A program made the translations under genes and the position numbers. A stretch of 30,248 bases of DNA. Source: Candidatus Thorarchaeota archaeon. Its GTDB lineage: Archaea; Asgardarchaeota; Thorarchaeia; Thorarchaeales; Thorarchaeaceae. The stretch spans positions 1 to 30,248 of the forward strand of contig JBHLQM010000042.1 of assembly GCA_048884785.1 (NCBI GenBank). Reading direction: 5' to 3'. Within the stretch, counting starts at the first letter, position 1, and every line of letters starts with the position of its first letter. A model generated the notes under the pieces. That model searched no databases, was not told the DNA's origin, and saw only the letters and a program-made list of their open reading frames with translations. This document shows, piece after piece, positions 312-22,627 of this stretch.

Positions 312-596
312 CTAGTTCATCCCCAATTGCCTGCGTATCTCCTCAACGGAGGGAATCACTCCGCTGTATAGCATCTTGAGCCCGCCATTATTCTCTGCGA
401 CAATACTTGGCGTGGAGGCTATGAATACCTGATTCTCCAATAATCTAAACTCTAGGTCAGGGTCCATATGTTTAAGGTCAATCGTCTTCAGGGGAATTTG
501 GCTTCCCAAGAGTGCCTCTTCAACAACAGCCTTAGCTGCGGGACAATTCGCACAATTTTCCTGTGTTATAATATACACTGTAGTCGAGGTAATCAC
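312..596 (-). CDS. Glutaredoxin/thioredoxin-like redoxin (NrdH-like), likely RNR electron donor
   Basis: 94 aa with CANC-P active site and downstream STP cis-Pro motif; GGGAGG SD before the GTG start; directly upstream of nrdD. Confidence 0.8.
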   Translation of the reverse strand: MITSTTVYIITQENCANCPAAKAVVEEALLGSQIPLKTIDLKHMDPDLEFRLLENQVFIASTPSIVAENNGGLKMLYSGVIPSVEEIRRQLGMN

Positions 597-757
597 AATT
601 CCTCCCGGCGGCTAATCAACACAACACCCCACATCCCCTTGGGGCCAGATACCATTCCCATACCTGTAATAAAAGACTTGCCATGGCTAGAAACGGTGTC
701 TAGCTTGAGAATTTCAAGCTCTCTCGGGCACTCAGATTGAAGCATCGGGCTCATCAT
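593..757 (-). CDS. Possible 54-aa upstream ORF
   Basis: ATG at 757 open to TGA at 595-593, which overlaps the redoxin GTG start (GTGA). Peptide MMSPMLQSECPRELEILKLDTVSSHGKSFITGMGMVSGPKGMWGVVLISRREEL has no recognisable motif. Confidence 0.25.
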   Translation of the reverse strand: MMSPMLQSECPRELEILKLDTVSSHGKSFITGMGMVSGPKGMWGVVLISRREEL

Positions 758-1055
758 TTAGTACATTACGCGACTTATTATACTACTACAAATTCCAGTC
801 GGAATCGGACCAATTTGCCACTGTTTTTTTTCAAATAAACAATGTGAAGATGTTTTTTTTCTAGTAAGAGATACCAACAAATGAAACAGGGGGTGCCGCT
901 GGCAATTGGCGCGATTCCTTGTCAATAAAACGACAGACCTCTCGAAAACCAATAAGGTGCACTTTAAAGTCGATGGCCTGTCAGTAGACTTAGAAGCGAG
1001 TATATGTTGCTTAGACTTCATATTGTAATCATCATAGATTTGAGATGTACCCACA

Positions 1056-1679
1056 ATGCCGACATACATTCGAGCGCAGGATCCAGTTGATGGATGGACA
1101 CGTGTTGTGCGAAAGATCATGCAGAGCGGCATGAGTAGAGTTGATGAGAGAGGGATAGAAACTCGGTGGTGCGATAATGTGATGATCAATGTTGCTCAGC
1201 CCCTCGAGAACAGAGTCACTTCGCTCTATCCATTTAGCGAGAAGGTGCTCAAAGAAAAATACGCCACACAACTTCTCAATCCAGACCGGATGGATTTTGA
1301 TTATACATATGGGGAACGGCTCAATGCATGGGGTGATGGCGAGATCAATCAGATCAATTATGTCATACAGAAACTTCAGGAGAACCCAAAGAGCCGAAGA
1401 ATAGTTGCCACCACATGGGATCCGAGAAAAGATACTGTATCAGACGAGGTTCCATGTCTCAATCACTTTGTTTTCATGACGAGAGAGAATAGCCTTGACT
1501 TGTCTGTGATGATACGATCAAATGATATGTTCGGGGCATGGCTTGCTAATGTCTACGCTCTTGGTGAGCTTTTGCTTCATGTAGCAGAGAAGACCAAATT
1601 ACAGGTTGGAACTATCACGACACTGTCAGTAAATGCGCACATCTACATCCATGATTGGGAAAAAGCATCATCTATCTAG
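1056..1679 (+). CDS. thyA: Thymidylate synthase, short archaeal type
   Basis: 207 aa; FDYTYGERL, SRR, catalytic PC(LNH), RSNDMFGAW.AN and AHIY motifs. Confidence 0.9.
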   Translation: MPTYIRAQDPVDGWTRVVRKIMQSGMSRVDERGIETRWCDNVMINVAQPLENRVTSLYPFSEKVLKEKYATQLLNPDRMDFDYTYGERLNAWGDGEINQINYVIQKLQENPKSRRIVATTWDPRKDTVSDEVPCLNHFVFMTRENSLDLSVMIRSNDMFGAWLANVYALGELLLHVAEKTKLQVGTITTLSVNAHIYIHDWEKASSI

Positions 1680-1729
1680 TAAGAAAAAGCGTGACATTCA
1701 TATAGTACTTTAACTAGAATTACATACAT

Positions 1730-1781
1730 CAGTTACTCGGTGTAACCCTGAGAGTACAGCAGTTACTGGCTGTAACCCTGA
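1730..1781. promoter_or_regulatory. Tandem 15-bp palindromic operators GTTAC-N5-GTAAC at a 30-bp period
   Basis: cagttactcggtgtaaccctga (1730-1751) and cagttactggctgtaaccctga (1760-1781), immediately upstream of an Lrp/AsnC gene. Confidence 0.75.
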
Positions 1782-1808
1782 TTATTCCGAACCGGGAGTG
1801 ATTATGAA

Positions 1809-2438
1809 TTGGATAATACCGATAAAATGTTGGTTTCAATTCTCAAACAAGATGGAAGAACTAGCTTGTCAGACCTAGGCAAGAAACTTGGCATGTCACA
1901 TGTAGCAGTTAGTAAGAGACTGGAAAAACTTGTGACTCCAGGAGAAGATGGCAGTCCACCAATGGTCCAAGTCAGCGCAGGCGTTCATGCAGATGAAATG
2001 GAAATGAAGATGCTGTTTATGGGTCTAGAAACTGAAAACTTGGAAGTCACTGACAAAATTATGAAGAAATATGGTGGCTGTCCCAGACTGGTTATGTTGG
2101 CTCCAGTCACAGGAAGATACAATCTATTTGCAGTCATGGTGGCAGAGGATACATTCTCACTTGAATCAATTCTTGGAACATGCTCAATAAGAACAGAAAC
2201 AGGAGTTCGAAGATCCGAAACATGGTTTGGTAATTCACCTGCGCATCCAAGCTATATACCTCTTGATCTGAATCCTGAAAATGGAGCAGGAAAAGCAGTC
2301 TGCGGAAGAGACTGTGCTTCATGCAAGAGGTTTGCAATAGAGAAGTGTGTTGGATGTCCATCTTCAAACAACTATAGAGGTACAGTGTTTGCCTCTTCTC
2401 TGACAGAAGCCAAACGTAGGGGCAAGAGTAACAGTTAA
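1809..2438 (+). CDS. Lrp/AsnC-family transcriptional regulator with C-terminal Cys-rich metal-binding domain
   Basis: N-terminal HTH (D..L...L..DGR.SL.DLGKKLGMSHVAV.KRL), RAM-domain VTGRYNL, and C-terminal CGRDCASC-x7-CVGC. GGGAGTGA SD before TTG. Confidence 0.88.
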   Translation: MDNTDKMLVSILKQDGRTSLSDLGKKLGMSHVAVSKRLEKLVTPGEDGSPPMVQVSAGVHADEMEMKMLFMGLETENLEVTDKIMKKYGGCPRLVMLAPVTGRYNLFAVMVAEDTFSLESILGTCSIRTETGVRRSETWFGNSPAHPSYIPLDLNPENGAGKAVCGRDCASCKRFAIEKCVGCPSSNNYRGTVFASSLTEAKRRGKSNS

Positions 2439-16872: not shown

Positions 16873-17703
16873 CTATTTCTTCGCCCGCCGCCACTCCTCA
16901 AAAATGGCCATGTACATACACTCTTGCGGTGGAATCCACATAACTGATGAATCAAATGAATCGTCAACCATCTTCACAGGCGCATCTCGTATCAGGGCAG
17001 CAGGAATTGACTCATTAGACTCACCCATAACTGCAGTACAGGCTGATGCAAGATTATCAGCTATGGCGCGTCTAGTTATTCTCAGCTCATTTCCAAAAAG
17101 GTCCTTTCGACCTCTATCATCTGCAACAGGAATGAACCCAGCAACACCCAAAGCCATTCCAATATTACCAAGGCGAAGTGGTTGCGTCCGACTATCGATT
17201 ACCAATACTCCAATATTCTTGCTAATTCGTTCTCTTGCCTGAGTCCTTAATCTTTCTGCGCTACGCTTCGGATTCTTCGGTAGCAACGACGCGTATCCAG
17301 GAGGAACATTTGACTTGTCTACTCCGGCATTTGCCATCAAAGTATTGTTTTTGATTGTGAGAAGTACATGCGGAATGCCTCCGAGGATTTCATCTGCTTC
17401 ATCCATCACGAGTTGAGTCACTTCAGGTATCATTGAATACTTCTCTGCAAGTCTTATTGCTTCTCTAGATGCTCTTATTGAGGAGAGACTGACAACCTGA
17501 CCTTCAGTTGTACCCAAGGGAGTTTCTGCTACTCCAAGAATGTCACCATCTTTGAGTTCATAGCCAGTCCTGCTCAAACCATCTAAAACAACATCAAGAA
17601 AATCATCTTCCTCTATTATGAGCCGTGTCTTTATTGGAACGACGAGCATTGCCTGCACCAGGAATATTTCATCACTATTGGCAACATAAACACTTCTTAC
17701 CAA
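16873..17703 (-). CDS. cofE: CofE-family gamma-glutamyl ligase (coenzyme F420-0:L-glutamate ligase-like)
   Basis: L.DGDIL.VAE, ANAGVDKSN, LLP.NP..SA..LR, IDS...PLR.G, D.RG..DLFG..L.IT..A.AD.LAS, MGE..E..P. Start may be 17658 or 17649. Confidence 0.85.
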   Translation of the reverse strand: MVRSVYVANSDEIFLVQAMLVVPIKTRLIIEEDDFLDVVLDGLSRTGYELKDGDILGVAETPLGTTEGQVVSLSSIRASREAIRLAEKYSMIPEVTQLVMDEADEILGGIPHVLLTIKNNTLMANAGVDKSNVPPGYASLLPKNPKRSAERLRTQARERISKNIGVLVIDSRTQPLRLGNIGMALGVAGFIPVADDRGRKDLFGNELRITRRAIADNLASACTAVMGESNESIPAALIRDAPVKMVDDSFDSSVMWIPPQECMYMAIFEEWRRAKK

Positions 17704-19113
17704 TCACCTATCTTTTGCCTGGAGTTTAATTCTGGCACCCATGATGCATTTGTCTCCTTTTCTTCCACCCATGGGATTATCCCGAGTTCCAAGTGAATTC
17801 ATACATCTTGCAGCAACCGCTGCACCCATTGCGAGACCGTCTTCTACAAAGACCAGTTGATGGGTTTTGCTCCAAAGATCTTCCTTGACTCTTAGATTAG
17901 ATGCTATTATGGTTGGCTTGTTTCCGCTTGTGATTGCCCGTCCAGTCAAACCAAGGGAGGTTTCCTCCAAGATTAGACCATTCTCGGCGGAGAGAGATAC
18001 CAGCCTGTTCACCAGCGTAGCCTGTGTGAGATCAAGAACTGTGTAAAGACCGTCAAGACCTTGATCTGAAAACAAATCTTTTCCAATCTTTTCTAGCTGA
18101 CTGAGCTTTGATCCATTTGTTCCAACATCCACGCCAATCAATGTGACTCCAGACTCTTCAGCTGCCTTGATATTGACAGGAACAGTTCCATAACGAGTGG
18201 TTCCTGGAGTAATGACTTCTACGCGAATCACACCCTGAATTTCATCTAGGAAATCTGGATGAACAAGAGAATGTGATTTGGCTGTGGCGGATGGCAAATC
18301 GAGAGCTGTTCCGTTAGTGATATCCAAGAATCCAGAACCCCTCACTATTGCATCAGGAATTGCGCCGGCTAAACCAGCAAATGAGCCAATTGTCTTTGCA
18401 TAGGGATGCGAATTGTCTGTAACCCTACCGGCTAATGTAGTGCCGAAGTCAAGTGTCATAACAGGATTTCTGAAGTCGATCTCAGTTCCTTTGACGGCTC
18501 CCTTTATCCCAGCCGTAACTAATTCACCTTCCATTTCATTCGCAACAACACTTGCATTAGCTGGAGGAAGAGAACTGGCAACAGCCCCATCAAAGTAGAC
18601 TTTCTTCAGCCAAGTATATTCTCTCAGATTTGGAGGAAGTGAATCAACAGTTAGGGCTGCAGTCATCTTTCGGGGAGGGACCCCTGCTTTGAGACACCCA
18701 TCTGCTAGAGCCTTCACCATTTCTCCAACATCTTCGGGATTGGAGAATCCAGCAGTCACTCCTGTTGAGCGAACAACAAAATGTAGGTCTTCTTCCACCC
18801 TCATGCCTGCTAATGAAAGAGCTTCCTGTAGTATCCCTGCAATCAGCTCAGCCACTGATTCTCTAGTTAGTTTGACTCCGACAATGGTTTCTCCAAAGAC
18901 TTCTTCATTTCTTAATGGTCTTCTCACATCCCGAGTGAATTTCACAACTTTTGCGAGTTGAAATATCTCGGCTGTTTTCAGATTCGTGGTTGAGAGAATG
19001 CATTTTGTAGTTGTATTGCCGAGCTCCACAGAAGCAACCGTGAAATAGGGACCTAGTCTTGTGGTTGTGATTCCAACAGAACGAGGTTTAATGACCCTGA
19101 CTCGCTTGACCAC
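17704..19113 (-). CDS. Methanogenesis marker protein 14-like (DUF2114), ASKHA/actin-fold ATPase
   Basis: VASVELGNTTTKCIL, TRDVR.P...EEVFG, FVVRSTGVTAGF, NEMEGELVTAGIK, DFRNP...LDFGTTLAGR, FVEDGLA.GAAV.ARCMNSLGT..NP.GG; directly downstream of mtrH as in methanogens. Confidence 0.85.
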   Translation of the reverse strand: MVKRVRVIKPRSVGITTTRLGPYFTVASVELGNTTTKCILSTTNLKTAEIFQLAKVVKFTRDVRRPLRNEEVFGETIVGVKLTRESVAELIAGILQEALSLAGMRVEEDLHFVVRSTGVTAGFSNPEDVGEMVKALADGCLKAGVPPRKMTAALTVDSLPPNLREYTWLKKVYFDGAVASSLPPANASVVANEMEGELVTAGIKGAVKGTEIDFRNPVMTLDFGTTLAGRVTDNSHPYAKTIGSFAGLAGAIPDAIVRGSGFLDITNGTALDLPSATAKSHSLVHPDFLDEIQGVIRVEVITPGTTRYGTVPVNIKAAEESGVTLIGVDVGTNGSKLSQLEKIGKDLFSDQGLDGLYTVLDLTQATLVNRLVSLSAENGLILEETSLGLTGRAITSGNKPTIIASNLRVKEDLWSKTHQLVFVEDGLAMGAAVAARCMNSLGTRDNPMGGRKGDKCIMGARIKLQAKDR

Positions 19114-19124
19114 TACATCAACTC

Positions 19125-20060
19125 CTACAGAAGGCGCCTGTATGGATGATCTTTCACTGGGTCAATACCTAGCTCAAGATTGGAGTATTCAGCGGCAAAG
19201 ATGTCAGCCATAGCAATGACAGGGAATACAGTTTCTGAATTCTTTATCGGACCGTATAGAATGAAATCCGCACCCAAGAGATGAACGGATAGATTTGATG
19301 AGATATCACACGCTTTGAATGCCTCTTTATTCTTCTTTTTGTAGTCATTGAGCCATGTCCACGATGATGGAGCATTATGTATCCCAGATCCGGTTGGCAG
19401 TCCATAGACCGATTTTGAAACAAATGTGAATGCAACTGAAGACCCGGCTCCAGCACCCATAGCTGTTGTAGCAGTGTCAATGAGTGGCTTGGTGATACCA
19501 AGCTCTTTGCTGAGAGGGAGCAATCCTTTTTCTATATTCAATACTCCTTCATCAAGCACTTTGCGCCTTCCTGCTATTGAGGGGTCCTGAGGATTAAAAG
19601 CAAGGATTATCGCACATTCATGCTGAATCTCCTCAAGTGAGTCATATTCAGCTTTTGTAATGGAGATGTTTATTGAGTTGTAAACTGCTCGATCCAGGAG
19701 ACCAATCTCCTCTGCATACTTCAGCCCATGAATACGCACCTGCGGATCTGTTGAATCAATAATGAATGGTGCTTGAGTCAGTGACGTTACGAAGTCAATG
19801 TAGCGCGTCAATGCTTCAGCGGACTCAGAAAAGATTTGAATCAGGCATGGATTGCCTGTTATGCCGGACATATCATCTTGCTGAGATATCAAGGATTCAG
19901 CCGCTTTCGTGTCAAATACTCCTTTTACAGGATCTTCAACAATTTTGTGACCGCCATAGAATATGGTTCCTGCAAGCACAGTAGGAAGCTCACCCGGATT
20001 TCCACCGACACGCACGCCGCCGATATTGTGAATTATTTGTTCTTTTTCAAATATGAACAA
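19125..20060 (-). CDS. mtrH: MtrH-family methyl-pterin:corrinoid methyltransferase (canonical-type)
   Basis: F.F.KEQ, GGNPGELPTVLAGTIFY..HKIVED, PF.IDST, YNSIN, LAFNP, GLPTGSGIHN..S.W.WL, GADF.LYGPI. Start reassigned to TTG 20060 (GGGAGGGA SD, 1 bp after the mtrA stop). Confidence 0.92.
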   Translation of the reverse strand: MFIFEKEQIIHNIGGVRVGGNPGELPTVLAGTIFYGGHKIVEDPVKGVFDTKAAESLISQQDDMSGITGNPCLIQIFSESAEALTRYIDFVTSLTQAPFIIDSTDPQVRIHGLKYAEEIGLLDRAVYNSINISITKAEYDSLEEIQHECAIILAFNPQDPSIAGRRKVLDEGVLNIEKGLLPLSKELGITKPLIDTATTAMGAGAGSSVAFTFVSKSVYGLPTGSGIHNAPSSWTWLNDYKKKNKEAFKACDISSNLSVHLLGADFILYGPIKNSETVFPVIAMADIFAAEYSNLELGIDPVKDHPYRRLL

Positions 20061-20061
20061 G

Positions 20062-20760
20062 TTAGGTTCCCTCCCTGCCAAACAATATTGTGCCTTTTCC
20101 TTCGGCTCGAATTTCGATTCCAATCGGCACAGGGTGAGTCGAAATGATTGCATCTATTAATTGCGAAAATATCATTGATGTTTCAGGATTGTAGAAGACA
20201 CCAAATTCAGGAAGAATCGATACATCTGCGGTTAGGGCTGCTGGAGTCCTTTTTCTATCGTCACCTTTGAAATCTATCCAAATCGCATCTTCGGGGTATC
20301 TTCCAGGATTGCGCTCATTCAATGCATCCACTCTTGCTGCAATGGCTTGTGGGTCTGAGTTGTTCATCATATTGATAAACTCAACCTGTTTTCTGAACCT
20401 TTCAACAGCATCAGCAGGGACGTTTTCTATGTAGGGGATAGCTCCTGAAGCATCTATGATACGTCGCGTTTCAGTATCGACTCCATTGGAATAGAGACTG
20501 GTGAGAGATGCCCCCGTATGATGTCCGGGTACTTCAGGACCTGAAAGAATCAAGAAACGAATGTTGGGATTAGAAACTATATTCACAATGATTCGTTCAA
20601 TTCCAATATTCTCTGTCTTGCAGGTGCCAATGATTCCATATTCAGCAGGAACATCGAACTTCTTGCCAAGCGTGCAAACTGCCACGGGCAAGTCGGGATT
20701 ACCTACCTCGAAATCTCCAGATACCGGAGGCCATTTTCTGCTTTCTCTGTTTTGTCCCAT
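20062..20760 (-). CDS. mtrA: MtrA-family corrinoid protein, soluble, with MtrB-like C-terminal extension
   Basis: WPPVSGDF.VG.P..PVAVCTL, G.CKTENIGIE....N.VSNPNIRFLIL.G.EV.GH (Co-ligand His80), GAIPYIEN, RF..QVE. No hydrophobic C-terminal anchor. Confidence 0.92.
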   Translation of the reverse strand: MGQNRESRKWPPVSGDFEVGNPDLPVAVCTLGKKFDVPAEYGIIGTCKTENIGIERIIVNIVSNPNIRFLILSGPEVPGHHTGASLTSLYSNGVDTETRRIIDASGAIPYIENVPADAVERFRKQVEFINMMNNSDPQAIAARVDALNERNPGRYPEDAIWIDFKGDDRKRTPAALTADVSILPEFGVFYNPETSMIFSQLIDAIISTHPVPIGIEIRAEGKGTILFGREGT

Positions 20761-20771
20761 TTTCCATCAAC

Positions 20772-21698
20772 CTACTCAAAATTTGGGGGATCGAAAAGTT
20801 CTGTTGACAGCCCCAGAGATCTGAGGGATTCCGCAGCAGATGTAGCCATGGCATTTGCCATAAGTGAAACTGCAGTGAACACTTCCTTCGTTCGAATCAT
20901 TGAACCATACATAACGCAATCTGCTGCAAAAAGCTGAGCGGCAATCACCGAAGCAACCAAAGATGACATGTAAGTGGACTCATCATCAAACCCTGGTTGC
21001 TTGAGAAAGCTCCACGCTGATGGAGCGTTATGTGGACTTATGCTGGTTGGTAATCCCAGTTCTGATTTAATGGCAAGAAGCGTGCGGTAGTCCAAACCAA
21101 ACCCAGCTCCTACCGGCATAGTTGCAGGGTCGACAAGAATCCTATCAACGCCTAATTCGGAAGTTTTGGCAATCATCTCTTGAATAATCTTCATTCGTTC
21201 TGGGAGAGATGTTGCCCGTGGGGACCAGCCTAATACGACCGCCATTTTGATGGAACTGGATTTCAGTTTCTCCATCTCATCCTCAGTGGTAGAGAGATTA
21301 ATGCTGTTGTAAATCAGTCGATCTGCCAGTCCGAGCTCGTCACATAATTCAATTCCTCTCAACCGGGCCTGCATGTTTGCTGATTCGAACATAAATGGAC
21401 CATCAATATTCTCTGCTAACCATGAAACATGCATCTCCATTGCGGTGGGAGTGCGTGCGTAGGCCTGGAGAATAAGTGGATGGCCAGTCTTTTGTGTTAG
21501 TGAATTACCTAGAGTGATCCATTGAAGAGCAGTTTGTTTATCAAAAAGACCTTCTTTTGTGTTTTCCACGATAGGCTGTCCTTTAAAGAAAAGTCCACCG
21601 ACTAACACAGTGGGGTTCTCCCCAGGGGATCCACCTATTCGGATCCCGCCAAAATCGAATGTCTGTTGAGGCTTTTTGAACACAAACATCATCATCAT
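20772..21698 (-). CDS. mtrH: Second, divergent MtrH-family methyltransferase
   Basis: F.FKKPQ, GGSPGENPTVL.G.LF, YNSIN, K...GLPT...HNAPSAW, D..MYG; ATGA overlap with metF. Confidence 0.85.
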   Translation of the reverse strand: MMMMFVFKKPQQTFDFGGIRIGGSPGENPTVLVGGLFFKGQPIVENTKEGLFDKQTALQWITLGNSLTQKTGHPLILQAYARTPTAMEMHVSWLAENIDGPFMFESANMQARLRGIELCDELGLADRLIYNSINLSTTEDEMEKLKSSSIKMAVVLGWSPRATSLPERMKIIQEMIAKTSELGVDRILVDPATMPVGAGFGLDYRTLLAIKSELGLPTSISPHNAPSAWSFLKQPGFDDESTYMSSLVASVIAAQLFAADCVMYGSMIRTKEVFTAVSLMANAMATSAAESLRSLGLSTELFDPPNFE

Positions 21699-22627
21699 CC
21701 TCTTTTTAAACGAGGGTGCAAACCTGTAGCTTTTACTAATTCTGGAACACTCTCAGGCCATCCAACACCCATTATATGAATCCCATTCAAACCCTCAATT
21801 CTCTTAACAGCTTCGATGGTTTCAATAGCTATCTCGAGCCCGACTTTCCGAGCTGCACTCTCCCTATCATCCCCGAATAGTCCTTCTTCCGCATCTTGCA
21901 AACGCCTGATGAATTCTTTTGGAACCTTGATTCCAGGGACTCTGAGATTCATCAACTCAGCCATTTCCGAATTCCTCAGCGGCACTATTCCAGCAAGAAC
22001 CCTGAGATTCAATCCTTCAATTTCAGTCATTACGGTTTCAAATGGAGTCATATCATATATTGCCTGCGTTTGAAAAAACTGGGCACCGGCATTTCGCTTC
22101 TCAATGATTCTCTTGACTTGTGAGTCATGGGGTTCGGAGTAGGGATTGAATGTCGCTCCTGCGAAGAAGTCCGGAGCTCCAGTGAGCTCCTCTCCTGAGA
22201 TATCAAAACCCTCCCTCATCACCTCAAGTAAGTCTAGCGCCAATACAGAATCAACATCAAAAACCATTTTTGTCAGGGGGTGTGTTCCGAGAAGAACATG
22301 GTCTCCAGATACAAGGAGGATGTTTCGAATTCCAAGAGCATAGGCCCCATACAAATCACTCTGAATCGCAATTCTATTCCGGTCCCGACCCGTCATCTGC
22401 ATTATTGGTTCTAGACCTTGTTGCAAAAGGAAATGAGAGCAAACAATGCTGCTCATCGATGGAATTCCTCTAGGATTATCGGGTACATTGACCGCATCGC
22501 AATAGCCCCTAATGATACTGATTTGCTCTTGAAGAGCCCCTAAATCTGAACCTCGCGGCGAGCCAATTTCAGCTGTGACAACAAACTCTCCTTTTTGAAA
22601 TAACCACTCAAGATGTGACCGATACAG
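21695..22627 (-). CDS. metF: Methylenetetrahydrofolate reductase (MetF, flavin TIM barrel)
   Basis: EPIMQMTGRDRNRIAIQSDL.GA.ALGIRNIL..SGD, K..AGAQFFQTQ, LAGIVPL, GIHIM. The frame stays open 57 codons upstream of the track's ATG (FVVTAEIGSPRGSD...DAVNVPDNP) to a CTG at 22627. Confidence 0.88.
   Translation of the reverse strand: MYRSHLEWLFQKGEFVVTAEIGSPRGSDLGALQEQISIIRGYCDAVNVPDNPRGIPSMSSIVCSHFLLQQGLEPIMQMTGRDRNRIAIQSDLYGAYALGIRNILLVSGDHVLLGTHPLTKMVFDVDSVLALDLLEVMREGFDISGEELTGAPDFFAGATFNPYSEPHDSQVKRIIEKRNAGAQFFQTQAIYDMTPFETVMTEIEGLNLRVLAGIVPLRNSEMAELMNLRVPGIKVPKEFIRRLQDAEEGLFGDDRESAARKVGLEIAIETIEAVKRIEGLNGIHIMGVGWPESVPELVKATGLHPRLKRG

Follow-up and report, generated by a model that had tools for sequence, protein, structure and literature searches.

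MtrA of the mtrH'-mtrA-mtrH cluster of Thorarchaeia is a soluble protein that ends in a tail, the start of which resembles the N-terminal arm of the methanogen subunit MtrB, and on balance we favor the interpretation that this MtrB-type arm docks MtrA on the MtrH dimer. Since the start of the tail resembles the arm by which MtrB holds MtrH, the tail probably clips MtrA onto the neighboring MtrH proteins in a pump-free enzyme. If this is true, an arm on MtrA gives a concrete explanation for the cohesion of a membrane-free MtrA-MtrH enzyme, and the divergent MtrH paralog of the cluster, termed H1, is pointed to as the anchoring partner. The MtrH-docking peptide would then be a portable module, with consequences for ideas on how the Mtr pump was put together or taken apart.

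Archaea that are not methanogens commonly have soluble MtrAH clusters, and their role and assembly are open (Adam et al., 2022; Valentin-Alvarado et al., 2024). The gene cluster analyzed here is itself already known. It was described for the same lineage and interpreted as a soluble methyltransferase that remains from Mtr (Adam et al., 2022; PMC9635834). The word MtrB does not occur in that paper, which holds nothing on the MtrA tail, on subunit association or on a split of the two MtrH roles. In the literature searched we found no mention of an arm on MtrA, of a Shine-Dalgarno explanation of the terminal motif of MtrA, or of the H1/H2 split described below.

The mtrA Gene and Its Operon

The window, i.e., the whole stretch of 30,248 nucleotides that was analyzed, contains the Candidatus Thorarchaeota mtrA gene as an open reading frame of 232 amino acids (positions 20062-20760, minus strand). 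The encoded protein consists of a corrinoid domain, a basic linker and a tail of about 55 amino acids. The corrinoid-binding domain (residues 7-169; 20254..20742, minus strand) matched Pfam PF04208 at 1.5e-57 with 194.5 bits (cut-off 25) and was modeled by AF2 with a pLDDT above 90. The best Foldseek matches for the MtrA model were 5laa, 5l8x, and 9qtr, with E-values of 1e-17 to 1e-18 and TM(target) scores of 0.87-0.91. The residues P78, G79, and H80 of the PGH motif were invariant in 120 homologs, and H80 is presumably the cobalt ligand, as the counterpart of His84 (Harms and Thauer, 1997; Wagner, 2016). The basic linker (residues 170-179; 20224..20253, minus strand) is variable and disordered; its alignment contains no consensus residue, and the AF2 model had a pLDDT below 50 for residues 167-178. 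Positions 20062-20223 on the minus strand code for residues 180-232 and the stop codon.

With respect to the two equivalog families of MtrA proteins, the Thorarchaeota protein fell below the cut-off in both cases. For TIGR01111, which represents MtrA of the Na+-pumping complex, it reached 181.7 bits (cut-off 249.15), and the match stopped at residue 169. For NF010654, the MtxA equivalog, the score was 160 bits compared to a cut-off of 279. No transmembrane stretch was found in the tail, where the highest mean Kyte-Doolittle hydropathy over 19 residues was 1.24. In the same measure, the membrane anchors of MtrA and MtrB from methanogens have median values of 2.3-2.4. This agrees with the preliminary description of the sequence, in which MtrA was said to end without a membrane anchor. 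A decayed MtrA anchor was also considered as the source of the tail and was rejected, as the comparison with the C-terminus of methanogen MtrA (linker, stalk helix and transmembrane helix) gave a P-value of 0.19.

The mtrA gene lies in a run of co-oriented genes in the order metF-like, divergent mtrH (H1), mtrA, canonical mtrH (H2), methanogenesis marker 14 (DUF2114), and cofE. The H1 gene (20772..21698, minus strand) matched the Pfam MtrH family with 225 bits. The H2 gene (19125..20060, minus strand) matched the same family with 382 bits and TIGR01114 with 391 bits (cut-off 271). As listed, the H2 open reading frame begins with an ATG at 20153 and overlaps mtrA by 92 nucleotides. The true start of H2 is, however, likely to be the TTG at 20060, since TIGR01114 and the family profiles reach the listed frame only from residue 33 on, since AGGGAGGG precedes the TTG, and since the relatives point to the same start.

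A short MTHFR/MetF-like gene (21695-22456, minus strand) precedes H1 with an overlap of 4 nucleotides. Methanogenesis marker 14 (16873-19113, minus strand; DUF2114, 614 bits) and a gene for a CofE-type F420-glutamyl ligase are located 3' of mtrH. The genes from metF-like to cofE look like a single operon, here in an organism that is not a methanogen.

Conservation of the Tail and the Gene Cluster

The lineage sample consisted of 301 genomes of the phylum, of which 76 belong to the same family as the window. A full-length MtrA carrying the tail was found in 71 of the 76 family genomes. The best 120 database homologs were 225-250 amino acids long (all but one 225-236) and had the same tail end throughout; most of those that were named are labeled Thorarchaeota. 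Of 30 loci that were read, 27 have the gene order H1-A-H2 and the remaining three end at a contig edge. For about two thirds of the loci, the gene following mtrA starts a few nucleotides after the mtrA stop codon, and for the rest it starts within about 30 nucleotides. The same H1-A-H2 cluster is present in G094, a genome of another Asgard family, where the tail is more divergent.

We searched the genome, which is 91% complete, for MtrB, MtrE, and MtrG and found none of them above the family cut-off. The position of mtrA between two mtrH genes, in a genome lacking these three subunits, fits the soluble MtrAH cluster of Thorarchaeia, and the absence of the three agrees with the previous description of this lineage (Adam et al., 2022; PMC9635834).

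The Start of the Tail Resembles the MtrB Arm

The arm-like segment comprises residues 180-203 of MtrA (VSILPEFGVFYNPETSMIFSQLID; 20152..20223, minus strand). For comparison, an MtrB profile was made from a diverse set of 37 MtrB sequences of methanogens, which were obtained from the genomes by an mcrA primer scan and by family searches. Using hhalign, the tail profile was aligned to the MtrB profile over 24 columns with Prob 93.5 and a P-value of 2.3e-7. In this alignment tail residues 180-203 are placed on MtrB residues 7-31 in M. marburgensis-type numbering, corresponding to residues 4-28 or thereabouts in M. mazei. The alignment had a score of 38.5. When the columns of the tail alignment were shuffled 150 times, the median score was 10 and the highest 22.6. 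A resemblance between the start of the tail and the MtrB N-terminus, as proposed in the preliminary description, was thus confirmed with a score well above any shuffle. The N-terminal V.I.PE..L.LDP..G.V arm, which corresponds to an MtrB landmark named in the preliminary description, was present in the 37 MtrB sequences.

In unbiased scans of Pfam and of the PDB, MtrB came out first. The single tail matched positions 2-32 of 94 of the Pfam MtrB profile (PF05440) with an E-value of 0.15-0.18 and 12.7-12.9 bits, where the cut-off is 27. When the 120 tails were scanned singly, 33 matched PF05440 (best E-value 0.0045) and any other Pfam family was matched by two tails at the most. Similarity to the MtrB family was seen by hhalign for the N-terminal part of the tail; in sequence-to-profile searches it stays below the PF05440 cut-off. 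When the tail profile was compared to all PDB sequences the top match was 8q3v_B, MtrB of M. marburgensis, with an E-value of 0.83 that alone is not significant. A word-indexed homolog search with the tail alone returned the query only. An exhaustive search of 1.84 billion representatives with the tail profile gave 12 matches, all of them Thorarchaeota MtrA fragments or low-complexity repeats, and no MtrB at E <= 1e-3. The apparent link between the tail and MtrB is visible only by profile-profile comparison.

The only other PF05440 match in the genome (contig C59, E-value 0.3) was located in a repeat protein of 420 amino acids and was rejected as noise. This protein (C59:5856-9023, open reading frame 559-1821, minus strand) has GGS(V/I)-type repeats and is beta-helix or bactofilin-like.

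AF2 predicted six short beta strands for tail residues 180-232 with a pLDDT of 58-68. Three of the predicted strands, 180-183, 188-191, and 196-199, are located in the arm-like segment. Pro184 and Glu185 of the tail were invariant in the 120 homologs. The tail start and the MtrB arm as seen in M. mazei (9qtp, 9qtq, and 9qts) have in common a conserved Glu, a fold of about three short strands and the motif h-h-P-E-(Y/F)-x-h-x-h-D-P-x-x-G/S-h-V; in the M. marburgensis structure 8q3v the MtrB arm is disordered. The two arms differ in their location: in Thorarchaeota the arm is C-terminal in MtrA, whereas in methanogens it is N-terminal in MtrB, a membrane subunit of its own. They also differ in what follows, since the Thorarchaeota arm is not continued by the stalk helix, PGREG or transmembrane helix of MtrB but by an unrelated beta extension of about 30 amino acids.

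The C-terminal Half of the Tail and the Terminal Motif

Residues 204-232 (20065..20151, minus strand) make up this lineage-specific beta extension, for which no relative was found outside this MtrA family. Comparison of the C-terminal half of the tail to MtrB by hhalign resulted in a score of 9.8 and a P-value of 0.16. The N-termini of MtrF and MtrG were also compared, as the half might correspond to extra strands of the MtrBFG sheet, and gave P-values of 0.055-0.3. A likeness to LAMTOR5/roadblock (E-value about 1.2) was judged to be due to chance.

The downstream mtrH gene has its Shine-Dalgarno site, AGGGAGGG (20069-20076, minus strand), within the codons for R-E-G in the MtrA tail, 8 nucleotides before the TTG. 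In the family the terminal G-(K/R)-E is coded by GGA-AAG-GAG or GGN-AGG-GAG-G, which contain AAGGAG and AGGGAGG, respectively. Either of these sequences was found 8-13 nucleotides before the H2 start in almost all of 26 family loci, at the distance expected of a Shine-Dalgarno site, and one locus has AGGGATG. The distant homolog from G094 ends in ...LLCKSIP without G(K/R)E, and its purine-rich site extends over the stop codon and beyond it. In the family, the codons for the terminal G(K/R)E double as the mtrH ribosome-binding site, and the motif is not a relic of MtrB. The C-terminal "motif" of this MtrA is a clear case of a protein end shaped by a ribosome-binding site.

The Two MtrH Paralogs

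In the cryo-EM structure from M. mazei, residues 1-23 of MtrB form a three-stranded sheet that docks the MtrH dimer at the dimerization interface, and salt bridges are formed between Arg5 of MtrB and Asp5 of MtrH and between Glu9 of MtrB and Arg211 of MtrH (PMC12774963). Glu185 of the tail is the counterpart of MtrB Glu9. For Arg5, which forms the other of these bridges, no conserved counterpart was found in the Thorarchaeota tail.

The H1 and H2 families, represented by 28 sequences each, were aligned with methanogen MtrH. The residue equivalent to Arg211 was an Arg in all 28 H1 sequences. Of the 28 H2 sequences, 26 have Ala or Ser at this position, one has Gly and one has Leu. At the position equivalent to Asp5, H2 has Glu, Gln or Asp, while all H1 sequences have Lys. 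H1 further lacks the basic patch Lys242/Lys243, which is proposed to bind the H4MPT tail, and carries the changes Asp103 to Glu and Thr32 to Gly; H2 is canonical at these positions. This division of features between H1 and H2 suggests different substrates, a heterodimer, or both.

Covariation of the Glu and its partner was checked in 27 methanogen-type genomes, in each of which MtrB was paired with MtrH. In 22 genomes, MtrB is acidic at the Glu9 position and MtrH has Arg or Lys at position 211. The remaining five genomes, all from one clade, have a Lys in MtrB and an Ala at MtrH position 211. The MtrB arms of that clade read ..IS(D/E)K(Y/H).. (loci L246-L249 and L254, compared to L207-L210 and L252-L270), an apparent coupled change of the salt bridge. 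The Glu/Arg covariation fits a coupled pair and amounts to about one evolutionary event.

From these comparisons we infer that the arm may dock on a dimer containing H1, possibly an H1/H2 heterodimer. As H2 is without the Arg, the assignment of the partner rests on one residue. Prediction of a complex of H1, H2, and the tail returned a score of 0.00, given as "no answer" by the tool, and speaks neither for nor against such docking.

Proposed Arrangement and Alternatives

In methanogens, MtrA is anchored in the stalk while MtrH is hung on the MtrB arm, so that the two are paired indirectly. Where the stalk is absent, an arm on MtrA itself would give equal proximity. We propose that strands 1-3 of the tail (residues 180-203 with the invariant Pro-Glu) correspond to the arm at the N-terminus of MtrB in methanogens, and that, with the stalk and pump subunits MtrB, MtrE, and MtrG absent, the arm would now be carried by MtrA. 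It would dock MtrA on an MtrH dimer in which the divergent H1 takes part, and the B12 domain could swing on the linker between the pterin-binding active sites without diffusing off.

The tail could instead be a lineage-specific beta domain with another job, such as oligomerization of MtrA or binding of the DUF2114 protein or another partner, in which case the likeness to the MtrB arm would be convergent or irrelevant. Such a job would suit the prediction of the tail as a single six-stranded unit, the lack of any detectable relative for more than half of it (residues 204-232), and the conservation of DUF2114 in the operon. However, the match to MtrB is specific and far above the shuffles, and it covers exactly the segment by which MtrB contacts MtrH, including the invariant Glu for which H1 holds the partner Arg. 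We therefore consider another job for the tail rather unlikely. The tail might also fold back in cis on the corrinoid domain and cover or regulate the B12 site there, which the flexible linker would permit, but it was not packed with confidence in the AF2 monomer (pLDDT about 60 for the tail and below 50 for the linker). Folding in cis would also leave both the likeness to the MtrB arm and the Arg of H1 unexplained, and we regard it as very unlikely. That a real C-terminal transmembrane helix was lost by a frameshift or an assembly error is practically out of the question. The constant length and end of the protein in 120 homologs and 71 of 76 family genomes, together with an mtrH start close behind the mtrA stop codon, argue against an error of this kind, and no hydrophobic stretch is present.

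The preliminary description went further and suggested an MtrA-MtrB fusion that would retain the cytoplasmic part of MtrB, with the arm, a shortened coiled coil and PGREG, and stop where the transmembrane helix would begin. The P-G/N-R-E directly before the transmembrane helix, on which this was based, was indeed seen among the 37 MtrB sequences, the tail end FGREGT is similar to it, and the G..E near the end is conserved in the family. Nevertheless, only the arm aligned with MtrB, and neither the coiled coil nor the GREG end held up: AF2 predicts beta strands and no helix, the C-terminal half is unlike MtrB (see the P-value of 0.16 above), and the G(K/R)E codons serve as mtrH Shine-Dalgarno sequence in almost all family loci, while G094 has a different end. 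Since the C-terminal half is unlike MtrB and G(K/R)E is explained by the ribosome-binding site, the protein is MtrA with an MtrB-type arm and a lineage-specific beta extension, and not MtrA with a truncated whole MtrB. In the methanogen loci read, mtrB is moreover located directly upstream of mtrA, whereas the arm is found at the C-terminus of MtrA, which makes a simple read-through fusion unlikely. A full fusion is for these reasons highly improbable. What is left of the proposed fusion is the segment related to the MtrH-docking N-terminal arm of MtrB.

Docking by an MtrB-type arm on MtrA is compatible with two histories. The arm may have been transferred from MtrB to MtrA once the pump was lost, as a relic in line with Adam et al. 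(2022), or the arm on MtrA may be the older one. In a more far-reaching version, an H1/H2 heterodimer and the arm-bearing MtrA would form a self-contained soluble methyl shuttle, in which the B12 domain would swing on the docked tail from one paralog to the other and the paralogs take different pterins or acceptors (e.g., H4MPT and H4folate, with a metF-like gene adjacent), as H2 keeps the patch for the H4MPT tail while H1 keeps the Arg without the patch. In its strongest form the arm on MtrA would be the ancestral means of joining MtrA with MtrH and older than the transfer of the arm to MtrB of the Na+ pump. We consider this version quite unlikely.

Other MtrA Proteins Without a Membrane Anchor

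MtxA, which is encoded in the mtxXAH operon of Methanosarcinales (NF010654), and the soluble MtrA homolog of M. fervidus (5laa) are also anchor-less MtrA paralogs found beside an MtrH paralog. The end of MtxA (...GDIIISEELVMDAASGTV...) was weakly similar to the MtrB arm (hhalign P-value 1.3e-3). Its similarity to the Thorarchaeota tail was weak (P-value 0.022), and MtxA stops after the arm-like segment, which lacks the Pro-Glu. In the MtxA sequences read (L213:2486-3076, minus strand, from Methanosarcina; L216-L232) a basic linker is followed by the end ...GD(I/V)(I/M)IS..(V/L).(L/M)D..SG(I/V).. The principle of an arm on MtrA may extend to these soluble paralogs of methanogens.

Other Asgard lineages have MtrA-MtrH fusions (Valentin-Alvarado et al., 2024; PMC11291895), which are likewise pump-free and keep the domains in proximity without a membrane stalk. 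These fusions are covalent and about 510-590 amino acids long, whereas MtrA and MtrH of Thorarchaeota are separate proteins for which we propose a docking arm. On inspection, no arm motif was found in the 35-45 amino acid linkers of the Asgard fusions (L271-L276). A covalent MtrA-MtrH fusion without an arm in other Asgard lineages fits with the arm of Thorarchaeota solving the same proximity problem. The linkers of the fusions contain a recurrent (Y/L)DW motif.
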